A DNA stretch of 64,000 nucleotides, taken from Escherichia phage vB_EcoM_IME537. The notes under the pieces are model-generated. The model was not told the DNA's origin and searched no databases. It saw only the letters and a program-made list of their open reading frames with translations. Below are positions 13,272 to 20,792 of the stretch, one piece after another. The translations under genes were made by a program, and so were the position numbers. The number at the start of each line of letters is the position of its first letter. The first letter of the stretch is position 1. The stretch lies in the sequence record NC_054921.1, one strand, 5' to 3'.

Positions 13272-14441
13272 TTAAAAATATTTTTTAAAACTCATCATAA
13301 CTTTATCATCAACATCATTATCAATCTGTGCTACAAGGTAAGATGACAGTTCTACTTCTTGCGGCGCGGATTGAACATTATCAGAATTAAGGTATTCACG
13401 AATCCAAGGATACGGATGTTTAACCGGAGCATCGGTAATTGGGCATGGAAGACCGCACTGTTTCATACGAGATACAGTTAAGTAATCAATAAAGCTCCAC
13501 ATGCTATTTGTATTTAATCCAGGAACATCGCCATCTTTAAATAAATGAACTGCCCAGTCTTTTTCTTGGCGGTTAACTTCCATGAAAATATCAACTGCTT
13601 CTTGTTCACACTCTTGAGCAATTTTAACCCATTCATCACCATCAGTGCCAAGTTGAAGTTGACGAATAATATATTGGGTGCCTTTAAGATGAAGCTGCTC
13701 ATCACGCGCAATGAACTTCATAATCTTGGCATTACCTTCCATGATTTCCATGTTCTTATGGAAGTTAAAGGTACATGCGAAAGATACGTAAAAACGAATA
13801 GCTTCCAATGCATTGATTACATGCAAGCAGAGGTAAAGAGATTTCATTAATGCTCGTTTAGTACATTCAACAACTTTGCCTAACTCTTCTTTACGAAATC
13901 CTTCTGATAAAATTCCTTCATAATCTTCAACCGCGTTTTGGTATTCACGAGTCTTAACTAGAACATCATCGTAATAGCGACCAATGGACTCGGCACGTTT
14001 CATAATAGCTTTATCTAATACAATCTCATCAAATACCTTTGATGGGTCAGTATAAAGATTTCGCATGATATGAGTATATGAACGACTGTGAATAGTTTCA
14101 CTAAAAGTCCATGTAGCAACCCATGTATCAAGACTTGGATCTGAAATTAATGACATAAGTACTGCAGACGGTGCACGACCCTGAATGCTATCTAGAAGTG
14201 ATTGATACTTCAGGTTATTAGTAAAAATATCTTGCTGATACTGAGGAAGCTTGTTAAATTGTGCAGCATCCATCATTAAGTTTACTTCTTCAGGACGCCA
14301 GAAAAATGATAAAGATTTCTCTGTAAGTTCTTCAAATACTCGATGCCGTTGAATATCATAACGCGCAATACCAAGACCTGAACCAAAAAACATAGGTTCT
14401 TTTAAAACATCAACTGGATTTGTATTAAAAACTGTAGACAT
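13272..14441 (-). CDS. nrdB: ribonucleotide reductase small subunit, uninterrupted (no intron)
   Basis: from MSTVFNTNPVD; continuous ORF. Confidence 0.93.
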   Translation of the reverse strand: MSTVFNTNPVDVLKEPMFFGSGLGIARYDIQRHRVFEELTEKSLSFFWRPEEVNLMMDAAQFNKLPQYQQDIFTNNLKYQSLLDSIQGRAPSAVLMSLISDPSLDTWVATWTFSETIHSRSYTHIMRNLYTDPSKVFDEIVLDKAIMKRAESIGRYYDDVLVKTREYQNAVEDYEGILSEGFRKEELGKVVECTKRALMKSLYLCLHVINALEAIRFYVSFACTFNFHKNMEIMEGNAKIMKFIARDEQLHLKGTQYIIRQLQLGTDGDEWVKIAQECEQEAVDIFMEVNRQEKDWAVHLFKDGDVPGLNTNSMWSFIDYLTVSRMKQCGLPCPITDAPVKHPYPWIREYLNSDNVQSAPQEVELSSYLVAQIDNDVDDKVMMSFKKYF

Positions 14442-15172
14442 TAATTTTTCCTCTTTAAAATTCTGCCGTGTTTCCAACCTGGCGGTATAATATCATCTTT
14501 ACCTATAAGCGTGCATTCACTTCCATTATTAATCCATTTCTTACCGCGGATTCCTTTATAATCTCTTGGTTTTATTTTGTCAAACTTTGCATCAAGTTGA
14601 TATGACCATCTAAATCCATAAGCATATTGAAATTTACCCTCGGCACAATATTTGATATTTGACCCGTTTCCATTAACTGACCGGGACGCTGCCGCAATAG
14701 AGTGAAAGGTTTCTATGAAATCCCCATCTAATGAGAATTTATGTATTTCTACAGATGGGCACGCATATCTATTCACGTTAGATACATGCTGTTTAGTTTC
14801 GTTTTTATGATGCTTGCCTAGCATCCCTTTAGGATGAGGATTATTTTTCCAATATTTCTTAAAGAACTCAGAATTAGCTTTAGCAAATAATTTTCTGTGT
14901 AAGCTGTACAATCTGTTATTAATTCTATTGCCAGCTTTATCTGTTGCCATTAACGTTAACGCAGAGGCAAGACCAAAATGGCCTTCATTTATCTTACATA
15001 GTAATAGATGAGCTATAAAATGTTCTCTGGCTGTTAATTCAACTAAATTTTCCTTATCATCAGAACCTCCCATACATTTAGGGATTATATGATGTGTCTC
15101 TTTATATTCTAGTAAAGATTCCCGAGCCTGAGCTCGGGAAATTAGGTCGTTATAGATTTTTTGATAATTCAT
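14441..15172 (-). CDS. HNH homing endonuclease (Mob family) between nrdA and nrdB
   Basis: 243 aa; N-terminal HNH core HHIIPKCMGGSDDKENLVELTAREHFIAH; same position as T4 mobE. Confidence 0.8.
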   Translation of the reverse strand: MNYQKIYNDLISRAQARESLLEYKETHHIIPKCMGGSDDKENLVELTAREHFIAHLLLCKINEGHFGLASALTLMATDKAGNRINNRLYSLHRKLFAKANSEFFKKYWKNNPHPKGMLGKHHKNETKQHVSNVNRYACPSVEIHKFSLDGDFIETFHSIAAASRSVNGNGSNIKYCAEGKFQYAYGFRWSYQLDAKFDKIKPRDYKGIRGKKWINNGSECTLIGKDDIIPPGWKHGRILKRKN

Positions 15173-16161
15173 TACAATTTACACGCTGCGCAATCATCGG
15201 CTTTTGGAGTTTCTATTTCATAATCATCAGTACCGGAACCATCACGAGTATTATGATAATAGAAGTTTTTAATGCCATAATACCATCCGTATAGCATGTC
15301 ATCAATCATTACAGACATTGGAACTTTTCCTTTTGGAAAAATCTGCGGGTCATAATATGTATTTGCTGAAGCTGATTGACATACCCATTTCAGCATAATA
15401 GCTACTTGCGTAAGATAAGGTTTATTACCTTTTTTAGCTAATTTCCACGTATAATCATACAGGTCTATGTTATGCTCAATATTGGGCACGACTTGATTAA
15501 AGGAGCCCTCTTTTGATTCTTTAACAGAGACTGGTCCACGTGGAGGCTCGATACCGTTTGTACTGTTAGAAACTTGGGAAGATGACTCACATGGCATAAG
15601 TGCTGATAATGTGCTATTACGGATGCCAAAGAGCTTAAGGTCTTCCCGCAGCGACGACCAGTCACAAACGTATTTTGGAGCTGCGATTTGGTCAATCTTT
15701 TTATTGTACCAGTCGATAGGTAATTCGCCTCGAGACCAACGGGTGTCTGAATAATATTCGCAAGGTCCTTTTTCTTTGGCGAGCTTAATGGATGCTTTAA
15801 TGAGTCCATACTGTAATCTCTCAAATAGTTCATGTGTTAAATCGTTAGCATCTTCATAAGAAGCAAAATTACTTGCCAGCCAAGCTGCATAGTTAGTAAC
15901 ACCTACGCCAAGGTTTCGACGCTTTTTAGCTTTTTCTGCTTCAGGAACTGGATATCCTTGGTAATCCAAAAGATTATCAAGAGCACGAACTTGGACTTCT
16001 GCCAATTCATTAATTTTATCTTGGTCTTGCCAATCGAAGTTATCTAACACAAATGCAGATAACGTGCAGAGGCCCACTTCACCTTTGTTTTCAATAACTT
16101 GTATTGTTGTATACTCATCATCTTCGTAAAATTCATCTACAAATTCATAATCAATATTCAT
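15172..16161 (-). CDS. nrdA: ribonucleotide reductase large subunit, C-terminal fragment
   Basis: 329 aa; ENKGEVGLCTLSAF aligns with E. coli NrdA ENGEIALCTLSAF; C-terminal CAACKL tail; ATG overlaps stop of the inserted HNH ORF. Confidence 0.85.
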   Translation of the reverse strand: MNIDYEFVDEFYEDDEYTTIQVIENKGEVGLCTLSAFVLDNFDWQDQDKINELAEVQVRALDNLLDYQGYPVPEAEKAKKRRNLGVGVTNYAAWLASNFASYEDANDLTHELFERLQYGLIKASIKLAKEKGPCEYYSDTRWSRGELPIDWYNKKIDQIAAPKYVCDWSSLREDLKLFGIRNSTLSALMPCESSSQVSNSTNGIEPPRGPVSVKESKEGSFNQVVPNIEHNIDLYDYTWKLAKKGNKPYLTQVAIMLKWVCQSASANTYYDPQIFPKGKVPMSVMIDDMLYGWYYGIKNFYYHNTRDGSGTDDYEIETPKADDCAACKL

Positions 16162-16861
16162 TTAATTCTTCTACCTTTTTTCGAGATATTCCTAGAGCTT
16201 TAGATGCTCGATGTATTGATTGATATTCTATACCGTTTATTTTTACAGCAATTAAGTTATGGGGTTTTAATCCCTTTGGATGAGGTTTACTGACGTATTC
16301 TTGATTATCGTTTTCAGAGATATTATCAAGCTTTCGACACTTAAAGCCTTTATGTTGAGACCTTTTGCCTTTGCATACGGCCGACATTGCCGAAGCATTG
16401 AGTGAATGTAGTTCGCAAAATTCTCTTAGGCCTTTATGGATTTCTTCATGACCGTCCGGGAAAGTAAATACCCAAGTTGTTTGAAGTTTTTCTCTATGCT
16501 CGTCAGTTACCGGAATACCTTTGTTCCAAGCTGGTTTGCCTTTATTATTTTCAGATACAGAAATAGCCAATTTTCTTCTAAGCCACCCATGGCGTTTATT
16601 GGTGTTCTTTCGTTCAATATTATCTTCAGAATAAACACACATCATATTAGCGGCAAATACCAATTTATGATTATCTGGATATATCTTTACTAATAATTGA
16701 TGAGCTATGTAATGCTCTTCGGGTGTCAAATCTACCAGGTTTTCCTTTGTATCAGAACCACCAATACACAGAGGTATAATATGGTGTGATTCGGTATAGC
16801 AATCTAATTTTCTGTTCTTAGCTTTAGAAATAAGGTTATTGTAAATTTTAGAATAATCCAT
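16151..16861 (-). CDS. HNH homing endonuclease inserted inside nrdA
   Basis: 236 aa; HNH core HHIIPLCIGGSDTKENLVDLTPEEHYIAH; own SD AAGAGGAAAA; C-terminal helix-turn-helix-like region. Confidence 0.85.
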   Translation of the reverse strand: MDYSKIYNNLISKAKNRKLDCYTESHHIIPLCIGGSDTKENLVDLTPEEHYIAHQLLVKIYPDNHKLVFAANMMCVYSEDNIERKNTNKRHGWLRRKLAISVSENNKGKPAWNKGIPVTDEHREKLQTTWVFTFPDGHEEIHKGLREFCELHSLNASAMSAVCKGKRSQHKGFKCRKLDNISENDNQEYVSKPHPKGLKPHNLIAVKINGIEYQSIHRASKALGISRKKVEELNEY

Positions 16862-16906
16862 AACTTTTCCTCTTGTTATGGATTATTTATTAACGGTCTG
16901 TGTACT

Positions 16907-18340
16907 TTATTTGCTTTGAATTATACCGCCAGGATTAGCTTCATAAAACTTAGCTACATCCGACTTCTTAATTTTGATTAAACGGGTTTGTTGGCTATTG
17001 ACATCATTAGTTGGAATAGCAATTTCACAACACAAGTTGCTCTGACGAATAGGTGCCTTTTCGCGAATAAACGGAGTATAGTTATTCGTATTATCAATGA
17101 ACTGCACATAAATCCTTGCTGTTCCTGATCGTTCAGTCATGAGCAATTCAAACAGTTCACGGGCTTTAATACGCTTTTTACGAATATTAGGGTCTTTTTC
17201 TGCGGCTTCATATAATTCACGGAAACGGTCTTGGTCTTTAAAATAAGAATAATAAAGCTCGCCACCCATTTCGTGTGGACTGAACAAAGTAATGTAGTCG
17301 TTCTTTCCGAATCGTTCCATCATTAGGTCATTCAGCTGGACACCATAATCCATATGGCGGATACGGTTTTCTTCTACACCTTTGTTATTTTTCAAAACGA
17401 GAAGATTTTCAACTTCCAAATGCCAAATAGGATAATAAGCAGTAGCAGCACCGCCACGAATTCCGCCCTGTGAACATGATTTAACAGCAGTCTGAAAATG
17501 TTTCCAAAAAGGAATAACACCAGTATGGCGTACTTCACCTGTGCCAATCTTAGAACCTTCGGCACGAATCATACCAACGTTAATGCCGATTCCAGCTCGC
17601 TTGGAGATATATTCAACAATTGAAGCAGAAGCTTTGTTGATAGACTTCAGCGAATCACCTGCCTCAATAACAACGCATGAACTAAACTGTCGAGTTGGAG
17701 TACGACATCCAGCCATAATAGGAGTTGGCAATGAAATCTGTCGAGTGGATACTGCTTCATAAAAACGGATAACGTGTTTTAATCTATCAACAGGTTCATC
17801 TTGATGCAATGCCATTCCAATAGTCATAAACGCAAACTGTGGAGTTTCATAAATTTGACCAGTGGTTTTATCTTTAACGAGATATTTTTCTTTTAATTGC
17901 ATCGCCCCGGAATAAGTAAATTCCATATCCCGCTCATGCTTAATTTTTGATTCTAAAAATGTAATTTCTTCTGCTGAATATTTTGACAGCAGTTCAGGGT
18001 CATATTTACCTTCATTTACACAGTAAGAAATATGGTCAATAAATGAACATGGTTCATATTGCCCGTAAACATGCTTACGAAGAGCAAACATTAAACACCG
18101 TGCAGCTACATATTGATAATCAGGCTCTTCAACTGAAATAGAATTCGCAGCAGCCTTAATGACAATAGTCTGAATGTCATCAGTTGTCATTCCATCACGG
18201 AGATATGATTTAATATTTTCATATAATTCATAAGGATCTACAGATGTTCCTTCAGCTGCCCAAGATAAAACTTTAATAATTTTTTGCGGGTCAAAGCTTT
18301 GAGAAACACCACTACTTTTGATAACATTAATTAATTGCAT
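16907..18340 (-). CDS. nrdA: ribonucleotide reductase large subunit, N-terminal fragment
   Basis: 477 aa; NrdA N-terminus through SNLCCEIAIPTNDVNS, then 28 unrelated residues and TAA. Confidence 0.85.
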   Translation of the reverse strand: MQLINVIKSSGVSQSFDPQKIIKVLSWAAEGTSVDPYELYENIKSYLRDGMTTDDIQTIVIKAAANSISVEEPDYQYVAARCLMFALRKHVYGQYEPCSFIDHISYCVNEGKYDPELLSKYSAEEITFLESKIKHERDMEFTYSGAMQLKEKYLVKDKTTGQIYETPQFAFMTIGMALHQDEPVDRLKHVIRFYEAVSTRQISLPTPIMAGCRTPTRQFSSCVVIEAGDSLKSINKASASIVEYISKRAGIGINVGMIRAEGSKIGTGEVRHTGVIPFWKHFQTAVKSCSQGGIRGGAATAYYPIWHLEVENLLVLKNNKGVEENRIRHMDYGVQLNDLMMERFGKNDYITLFSPHEMGGELYYSYFKDQDRFRELYEAAEKDPNIRKKRIKARELFELLMTERSGTARIYVQFIDNTNNYTPFIREKAPIRQSNLCCEIAIPTNDVNSQQTRLIKIKKSDVAKFYEANPGGIIQSK

Positions 18341-18612
18341 AAGTCCTCAACTTGAAAATCGTCTTTAAACAATCGGTTAACTATATGAGCTATTATATCA
18401 CCATGACACGGCTTTGGTTTACATGTGCATCCTAGCCTCATTCCACGTAAAGGCTCTAAATGTGCTTTAGTTATTTCTCCGGATTTAATTCGACGTATAA
18501 AATCTTTTTTGAATAATTCAATGGCAGCCTCCCGGCTGCCAGCATCTTTACCGACGTAATTTCCCCAAAATGTACCACGGTGAATATTAACATCAAAGTC
18601 GGATTTATATTT
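18331..18612 (-). pseudogene. DUF4326-like reading frame (93 codons) with no ATG/GTG/TTG start, following an in-frame TAA
   Basis: minus-frame translation KYKSDFDVNIHRGTFWGNYVGKD...LRGMRLGCTCKPKPCHGDIIAHIV; ends overlapping nrdA start. Confidence 0.5.
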
Positions 18613-18876
18613 TTATTCACTACTTGGCATAGACGGCCCGCGCGGTGATAATTCGTCATATTGTTTTTCCGTTAAAACAGTAATATCATAGTAACAATCA
18701 GAAGAAGTTTTAACCGTAGAAATTTTATTATCAAAATACTCACGAGTCATTTTATGAGTATAATATTTTTTGCCATAAATGATAATAGGCTGATTTGGTC
18801 CTGGAACTTCTAACTCGCTTGGGTTAGGAAGTGTAAAAAGAACTACACCAGAAGTATCTTTAAATCGTAAAATCAT
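18613..18876 (-). CDS. hypothetical protein, 87 aa, in frame with downstream DUF4326-like segment
   Basis: ORF; TAA at 18613..18615 separates it from the DUF4326-like frame. Confidence 0.5.
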
Positions 18877-18899
18877 ATATCCTCACAATTAATAATTAA

Positions 18900-19759
18900 T
18901 TACACCGCCATTTTTCCTTTAATAGGAGGGTGTGATTCGTAACCTTTAAGAACGAAATCTTTAGGCCTGAGTTTAAGAACATATTCCAATTGTTCTTTAG
19001 TAGAAAGATAGCGGAATTTATAAGGCAATCCGCCTATTACCAGTTCACAAAGCTCTTTAGGTTCACGACGTAAAATTTCTTTACACTGTTCTATGTGATT
19101 CATATAGATATGAGTATTACCACCAGAAAATATCAAATCTCCTGGAATAAGATTACACATCTTAGCTACAATATGAACTAATGCAGCATATGATGCAATG
19201 TTGAATGGCAAGCCCAAGAACACGTCAACACTTCTTTGATACCACTGCAAATCCAAATAGCCATTACGCACATTAAACTGATAAAACATATGACAAGGTG
19301 GTAATGCCATATGTTTAAGTTCAGCTGGATTCCATGCTGAAACAATTTGACGCCTATCATTCGGCAGTTTTTTAATACGATCAATAACTTCTACAATTTG
19401 GTCTACACCGCCAAAATCACGCCACTGTTTTCCATAAATTGGACCAAGTTCACCACTATGATATCCTAAATCTTTTGCTTGATTTTCGTAATTTTCATCC
19501 CAGACTGTTTTGCCTTGAATTAATGAATCATGCTGAATTAATCGTAAATCATTTACGTTAGTACTTCCTGACAAAAACCATATTAGCTCAGCAATACAAG
19601 CTTTCCAGGCGAGCTTCTTAGTCGTTACTGCAGGAAAACCTTTAGTTAAATCCCAGCGTAATTTAGTACCGAACAAAGCAATTGTTCCTGTGCCTGTTCG
19701 GTCATCGGTTTCATAACCGTTTTCCAGGATATCTTTAATTAAAAATTGGTATTGTTTCA

Positions 19760-19760
<1 letters not shown>
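18900..19760 (-). CDS. td: thymidylate synthase, uninterrupted (no intron)
   Basis: 286 aa from MKQYQ; continuous ORF including the PPCH active-site region. Confidence 0.95.

Positions 19761-20792
<1,032 letters not shown>

Follow-up and report, generated by a model that had tools for sequence, protein, structure and literature searches.

Gene content of the td-nrdA interval

The DNA under study, called the window below, is a stretch of 64,000 nucleotides (positions 1-64000) from Escherichia phage vB_EcoM_IME537 (NC_054921.1), a T4-like phage (Tequatrovirus). On its minus strand, the genes frd, td (18903-19760), nrdA.2, nrdA.1 and nrdA are found in this order. A 24-kb stretch around the site described here is ~95-97% identical to phages HY01, PEC04 and PD112, of which PD112 is the closest relative of the window by identity. 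The interval, used as a 701-base query, was matched at an identity of at least 95% by about 490-510 phage records belonging to Tequatrovirus, and in the top matches 699 bases were aligned with the 701 bases of the query. With the 108-aa NrdA.1 protein as tblastn query, 475 records were found at an identity of at least 95%. The following features are referred to in the text.

18613..18876, minus strand: nrdA.2 (DUF5496), 87 aa, intact (ORF list; Pfam DUF5496 E-value 1.4e-58; 100% amino acid identity to HY01_0222)
18615-18613, minus strand: stop codon TAA of nrdA.2, inside the lengthened A-run (ORF list)
18612..18659, minus strand: 5' piece of nrdA.1, ATG (18659-18657) with 16 native codons, corresponding to the start of the relatives' 327-nt nrdA.1 (alignment)
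18610..18614, minus strand: A5 run with a 2-bp AA insertion; relatives carry A3 (GTGAAT-AAA-TAT) (alignments, blastn against HY01)
18471..18659, minus strand: shifted frame, open from the nrdA.1 ATG, 62 aa, stop TAA at 18473-18471 (ORF list)
18331..18609, minus strand: body of nrdA.1, codons 17-108 and stop (Pfam DUF4326 E-value 9.1e-21; identity to HY01)
18338..18348, minus strand: Shine-Dalgarno sequence GAGGA (18348-18344) and ATG (18340-18338) of nrdA, overlapping the end of nrdA.1 (sequence; ORF 16907-18340)
18504..18510, minus strand: A AAA AAG heptamer, in phase with the shifted frame (UCA AAA AAG) (sequence)
18505-18510, minus strand: A6 run, site of the A7 allele in other phages (alignment, A7 records)

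The reading frame of nrdA.2 runs on past its TAA for 93 sense codons (18612-18334) and ends at a stop codon at 18333-18331. This segment (18331-18612) was matched by the Pfam profile DUF4326 (PF14216) with an E-value of 9.1e-21 and 74.8 bits against a cutoff of 25, which is above the gathering score. The match covers profile positions 7-81 of 82 and is far beyond chance. The DUF4326 core, with HRGTFWGN and GCTCKPKPCHGD, lies within the segment. The earliest ATG, GTG or TTG in this frame is an ATG at 18441 (codon 58), which lies past HRGTFWGN and leaves an ORF of 36 aa, and the body of the gene is without a usable start in its present frame, that of nrdA.2. These observations bear out the descriptive part of the original prediction, which had noted an 87-aa ORF at 18613-18876 ending in TAA, a DUF4326-like continuation of 93 codons with no ATG, GTG or TTG before the motif, and an end that overlaps the start of nrdA (stop 18333-18331, nrdA ATG 18340-18338).

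In DNA, the body of nrdA.1 is nearly invariant: of 490 records, 433-440 matched 71-nt probes from 18331-18600 at an identity of at least 99%. Far more variation than in the body is found in the initial ~60 nt of nrdA.1 and in the flanking td gene. Co-conversion around homing-endonuclease sites or an overlapping signal may be responsible. Within nrdA.1, a perfect 7-bp hairpin, GGCAGCC-GGGA-GGCUGCC, can be formed on the minus strand (18523-18540); it lacks a downstream T-tract and was not picked up in the terminator scan. Scanning for promoters and terminators near the insertion site gave nothing informative.

A 2-bp insertion cuts nrdA.1 off from its start

In the annotated relatives SF2-1, vB_SsoM_113 and HY01, nrdA.1 is a separate gene of 327 nt and 108 aa, read in a different frame from an ATG that is located 47 nt within nrdA.2. 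One record (W143) puts the start of nrdA.1 elsewhere. For the td-to-nrdA interval of other T-even phages, the original prediction had asked whether there is one ORF or two; the relatives have two separate ORFs there, the second of which starts 47 nt inside nrdA.2. The ATG used by the orthologues is directly visible in the window at 18659-18657 and is followed by the conserved 16-residue N-terminus of the family. The earlier suggestion that the gene had lost its start comes close in that the body is cut off from its start, but the ATG at 18659 is itself present, in another frame. The DUF4326 domain and the frame of the body had been assigned correctly, but the conserved N-terminus in front of it was overlooked. 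The original prediction had named an orthologous start at a codon that is an ATG in the window as evidence against it, and 18659 is such a codon.

Alignment with relatives directly reveals the cause of the split. The run GTGAATAAATAT of the relatives reads GTGAATAAAAATAT in the window (A3 to A5, 18610-18614), and the sole aligned difference at the site is GTGAAT-AAA-TATAAATCC in the relatives versus GTGAAT-AAAAA-TATAAATCC in the window. The A-run has a length of five in the window and of three in all 15 loci that were aligned (the first seven, checked separately, also had three). When compared with HY01 by blastn, the 2-bp gap was the only gap in an alignment of 3.8 kb. Because of the two additional A's, the native frame is left after codon 16. 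Starting at the ATG at 18659, 16 native and 46 out-of-frame residues are encoded before the TAA at 18471, giving an ORF of 62 aa. This frameshifted ORF had no Pfam match, and its product was absent from the records in an exact look-up. Since nrdA.1 normally stands in the +1 frame relative to nrdA.2 and the insertion adds two bases, the body of nrdA.1 comes to lie in the frame of nrdA.2. Judged from the sequence, the shared frame behind the TAA is an accident that is fully explained by the +2 insertion.

The profile match is affected in the same manner. Profile positions 2-6 of DUF4326 (QVVNK) are encoded in another frame than the body, so that the whole domain is not contained in one started frame. 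With the N-terminus restored, the Pfam match begins at profile position 2 rather than 7. C11, N15 and K16, each of them located upstream of the shift, show no variation among 42 aligned full-length homologues.

None of 300 phage records was matched at 100% by a 66-mer across the site. The top match, at 97.0%, aligned 64 bases of the record with 66 bases of the query, which corresponds to the 2-bp gap alone. An exact 26-mer with A5 was found in 0 IMG/VR contigs; three IMG/VR contigs carry the site, all of them with A3. Among metagenome contigs, 0 had A4, A5 or A6 at this position. Direct comparison thus finds the +AA allele to be private to the window among the phage records, IMG/VR and the metagenome contigs.

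The gene lies between nrdA.2 and nrdA, with its ATG inside nrdA.2, with a stop codon overlapping the nrdA start and with high identity to its relatives, as found for T4 nrdA.1 and its orthologues (e.g. HY01_0221), and it can be assigned as the orthologue of T4 nrdA.1. Unlike T4 nrdA.1 and HY01_0221, the copy in the window is broken in its frame after codon 16, and no 108-aa product is possible. It seems probable that this is the result of a recent natural frameshift mutation that inactivated nrdA.1, a gene that appears to be dispensable and to have been lost repeatedly in this group of phages. nrdA.1 is a T4-type accessory gene encoding a single DUF4326 domain of 108 aa, and according to this explanation a slip in the short A-run changed A3 to A5 and thereby inserted 2 bp between codons 16 and 17. 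It follows from the sequence that ribosomes starting at the ATG at 18659 translate 16 native codons and then 46 codons out of frame, as far as the stop at 18471. The other 92 native codons, although intact, cannot be translated by standard decoding. nrdA.2 is unaltered by the insertion, and nrdA retains its own Shine-Dalgarno sequence. The +AA allele is presumably null. Most likely, it is an ordinary broken-gene allele and neither a fused nor a recoded gene.

Mutation or error in the record

The two additional A's might also be an error of sequencing or assembly, in which case the phage itself would have a normal nrdA.1 of 108 aa. We consider this unlikely, although several observations point in its direction. 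The difference is placed in a homopolymer, and the +AA allele is present in no second sequence and is unique among hundreds of relatives. The rest of nrdA.1 is perfectly conserved: residues 16-108 share 100% amino acid identity with HY01, and the 92 downstream codons are without any decay. Such complete identity would be expected just as much from a very recent mutation as from an artefact. On the other hand, the A-run is only 3 nt long in the relatives, and a change of +2 is atypical of homopolymer miscalls.

The remainder of the window is intact, as was observed directly. The HY01 genes annotated in two stretches spanning the window were translated and compared with the window by tblastn. 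Out of ~95 HY01 genes with an orthologue in positions 1-64000, nrdA.1 alone is split between frames. Short tblastn coverage was otherwise seen for a tail-fibre gene, which is variable, for a homing endonuclease, which is absent, and for a small ORF, which is divergent; none of these is frameshifted. Comparison of the blastn alignment with the annotation showed that the other isolated indels relative to HY01 whose length is not a multiple of three are all intergenic or at gene ends and thus avoid coding sequence. The assembly therefore looks accurate, because random errors would mostly fall in coding sequence. That no other gene among the ~95 is frameshifted makes a real mutation likelier than a sequencing error, and real frameshift alleles of nrdA.1 are known from related genomes (see below). 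We infer that the insertion is present in the phage itself and not merely in the record. With respect to the original prediction, which had listed a one-base sequencing error, an error is a near option, but the insertion comprises 2 bp (AA) and a real mutation is favoured.

Other frameshift alleles of nrdA.1

In the homologue search, two 87-aa proteins (P0023 and P0026) have their start in an alternative frame, followed by the native C-terminus. Aligning the contigs that encode them revealed independent insertions. An A6 to A7 change in TTCAAAAAAGAT is found at 100% identity in 10 of 488 phage records and with one substitution in 6 more, and the same allele is present in four metagenome samples. 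Its carriers include vB_EcoM_Lutter, CHD2BS1, G3G6 and PM105, and in vB_EcoM_Lutter nrdA.1 is annotated as two ORFs. An additional G in CGGGAGGCT (GGGAGG to GGGAGGG) was observed in four Logan samples and in none of the records of the phage collection; this +G allele, carried by contigs L012-L015, maps to the loop or the 3' arm of the hairpin at 18523-18540. A G4 to G5 change in TTTTGGGGAAAT is carried by phage PD112 (vB_vPM_PD112) and by one Logan contig, whose NrdA N-terminal protein is the same as that of the window. The ECO07P4 protein has an altered C-terminus, implying a 1-nt deletion near the 3' end of nrdA.1. Counting nrdA.1 alone, frameshifted versions occur in roughly 4% of the sequenced Tequatrovirus relatives.

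Like the allele of the window, the A7, G5 and +G alleles arise from small insertions, located at short homopolymers or G-rich runs. The remaining gene is intact, and the phages that carry these alleles are evidently viable. They differ in that the insertion of the window is +2, lies at codon 16/17 and is private, whereas the others are +1 changes at codons ~31, 43 and 51. nrdA.1 looks dispensable and repeatedly lost. Taken together with at least four other frameshift alleles in relatives, that of the window indicates that a phage can live and persist when it has no functional DUF4326 protein.

It is conceivable, but in our opinion doubtful, that nrdA.1 is subject to recurrent adaptive loss or to on/off switching in T4-like phages and that the +AA insertion is one instance of it. 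This idea draws on the finding that nrdA.1 is broken in otherwise intact genomes by small indels, at least five of them independent and most of them placed in short mononucleotide runs. If it were true, the recurrent loss could reflect counter-selection on some hosts, for example if the DUF4326 protein or its activity were sensed by, or costly against, an NAD+/ADP-ribose-based defence. Alternatively, the recurrent loss might then be caused by a hypermutable tract of the contingency type.

Recoding and gene fusion

Apart from the loss of nrdA.1 by mutation, the arrangement could be read as a gene that is expressed by recoding, either through a -1/+2 slip on the A-run, through readthrough of the TAA to a NrdA.2-NrdA.1 fusion, or through non-canonical initiation. 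The position of the body in the nrdA.2 frame behind a single TAA agrees with such a mechanism, as does the in-phase A AAA AAG heptamer that the shifted frame meets at 18510-18504. Nevertheless, recoding in any of these forms appears very improbable. None of the aligned relatives has this insertion or needs recoding at the site; being without the insertion, they require no frameshift there. The two-frame arrangement is not conserved either, as the phage records that match the site lack the insertion and the relatives inspected read nrdA.1 in one frame. The sequence at the insertion site in the shifted frame (U AAA AAU) provides no canonical slippery heptamer, and the downstream RNA is without significant structure, with a z-score of -1.62 for the fold of 18520-18640 and 14 of 200 shuffled sequences folding as well. 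An Rfam scan of 14000-20000 returned nothing, hence no known frameshift element. In E. coli, UAA is read through only very rarely. Moreover, a product of readthrough or of internal initiation would be without the invariant residues C11, N15 and K16, which speaks against the readthrough and non-canonical initiation considered in the original prediction. A -1 slip at A AAA AAG was also considered as a candidate: it would regain the native frame, but the HRGTFWGN region would by then already have been replaced by out-of-frame residues, and this candidate was rejected.

Almost no weight can be given to another option of the original prediction, in which a nonsense mutation would interrupt an ancestral gene with the two domains DUF5496 and DUF4326. 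Its sole support is that both parts share a frame in the window, whereas in every relative looked at nrdA.2 and nrdA.1 are separate genes overlapping by 47 nt in different frames. The homologue clusters (52/52) are single-domain proteins of 52-125 aa with no DUF5496-DUF4326 fusion, and the N-terminal extension seen in the longest cluster (P0046) does not resemble the 87-aa NrdA.2.

DUF4326 and its proposed function

T4 nrdA.1 is annotated as an 'uncharacterized 12.4 kDa protein in nrdA-td intergenic region', and in PHROGs the family (phrog_464) is listed as unknown. DUF4326 has been predicted to be a rhodanese-phosphatase-like enzyme that acts on ADP-ribose derivatives, and frequent fusions to Macro, NADAR and SLOG domains have been noted (PMC7824862, PMC9503650). 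According to the sole published proposal for its role, it processes terminal phosphates on molecules derived from ADP-ribose (Iyer et al. 2022, PMC9503650). The DUF4326 proteins of jumbo phages and giant viruses belong to the same Pfam domain and are often fused to Macro, NADAR or SLOG. Unlike these forms, the DUF4326 sequence of the window stands alone, is located beside nucleotide-metabolism genes and is disrupted. An AlphaFold model of an intact homologue was of moderate quality (pLDDT 72, pTM 0.66), and with this model no significant structural match to phosphatases was obtained. Sequence and profile searches of the PDB gave chance-level matches only.

For annotation, the appropriate entry for this region is a frameshift-disrupted nrdA.1, and not a fusion, a readthrough gene or an ORF without a start; nrdA.2 and nrdA are unaffected. 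The viability of phages that lack a functional DUF4326 protein provides a useful background for testing the proposed ADP-ribose-related role.

The neighbouring genes nrdA and td

On the minus strand of the window, nrdA is present as two ORFs of 477 aa (16907-18340) and 329 aa (15172-16161). The two pieces are separated by an ORF of 236 aa (16151-16861) encoding a homing endonuclease of the HNH/NUMOD type. Rfam detected no recognised group I intron within 14000-20000, the region that includes the split nrdA. The split gene resembles the genes-in-pieces nrdA of Aeromonas phage Aeh1. The homing endonuclease is 100% identical in HY01, where nrdA has been left unannotated. In PEC04, FL23, FL33 and FL44, nrdA is annotated as two genes, and the relative contig L012 has an intact nrdA of 754 aa. 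In two contigs with the A7 allele of nrdA.1, the endonuclease ORF is itself split into 129-aa and 106-aa ORFs (L008 3313-4023, L009 1904-2614), which suggests that the endonuclease is decaying in this lineage.

The td gene of the window is uninterrupted (286 aa) and contains neither an intron nor an I-TevI gene. In contigs L008 and L018, an I-TevI gene is found beside a td fragment, fitting a td that contains an intron. The td protein of the window, thymidylate synthase, is 88% identical in amino acid sequence to that of HY01, and an exact look-up of it gave no record. A 115-aa ORF located between frd and td in HY01 is without a counterpart in the window, which has an ORF of 68 aa (19760-19966) there instead.
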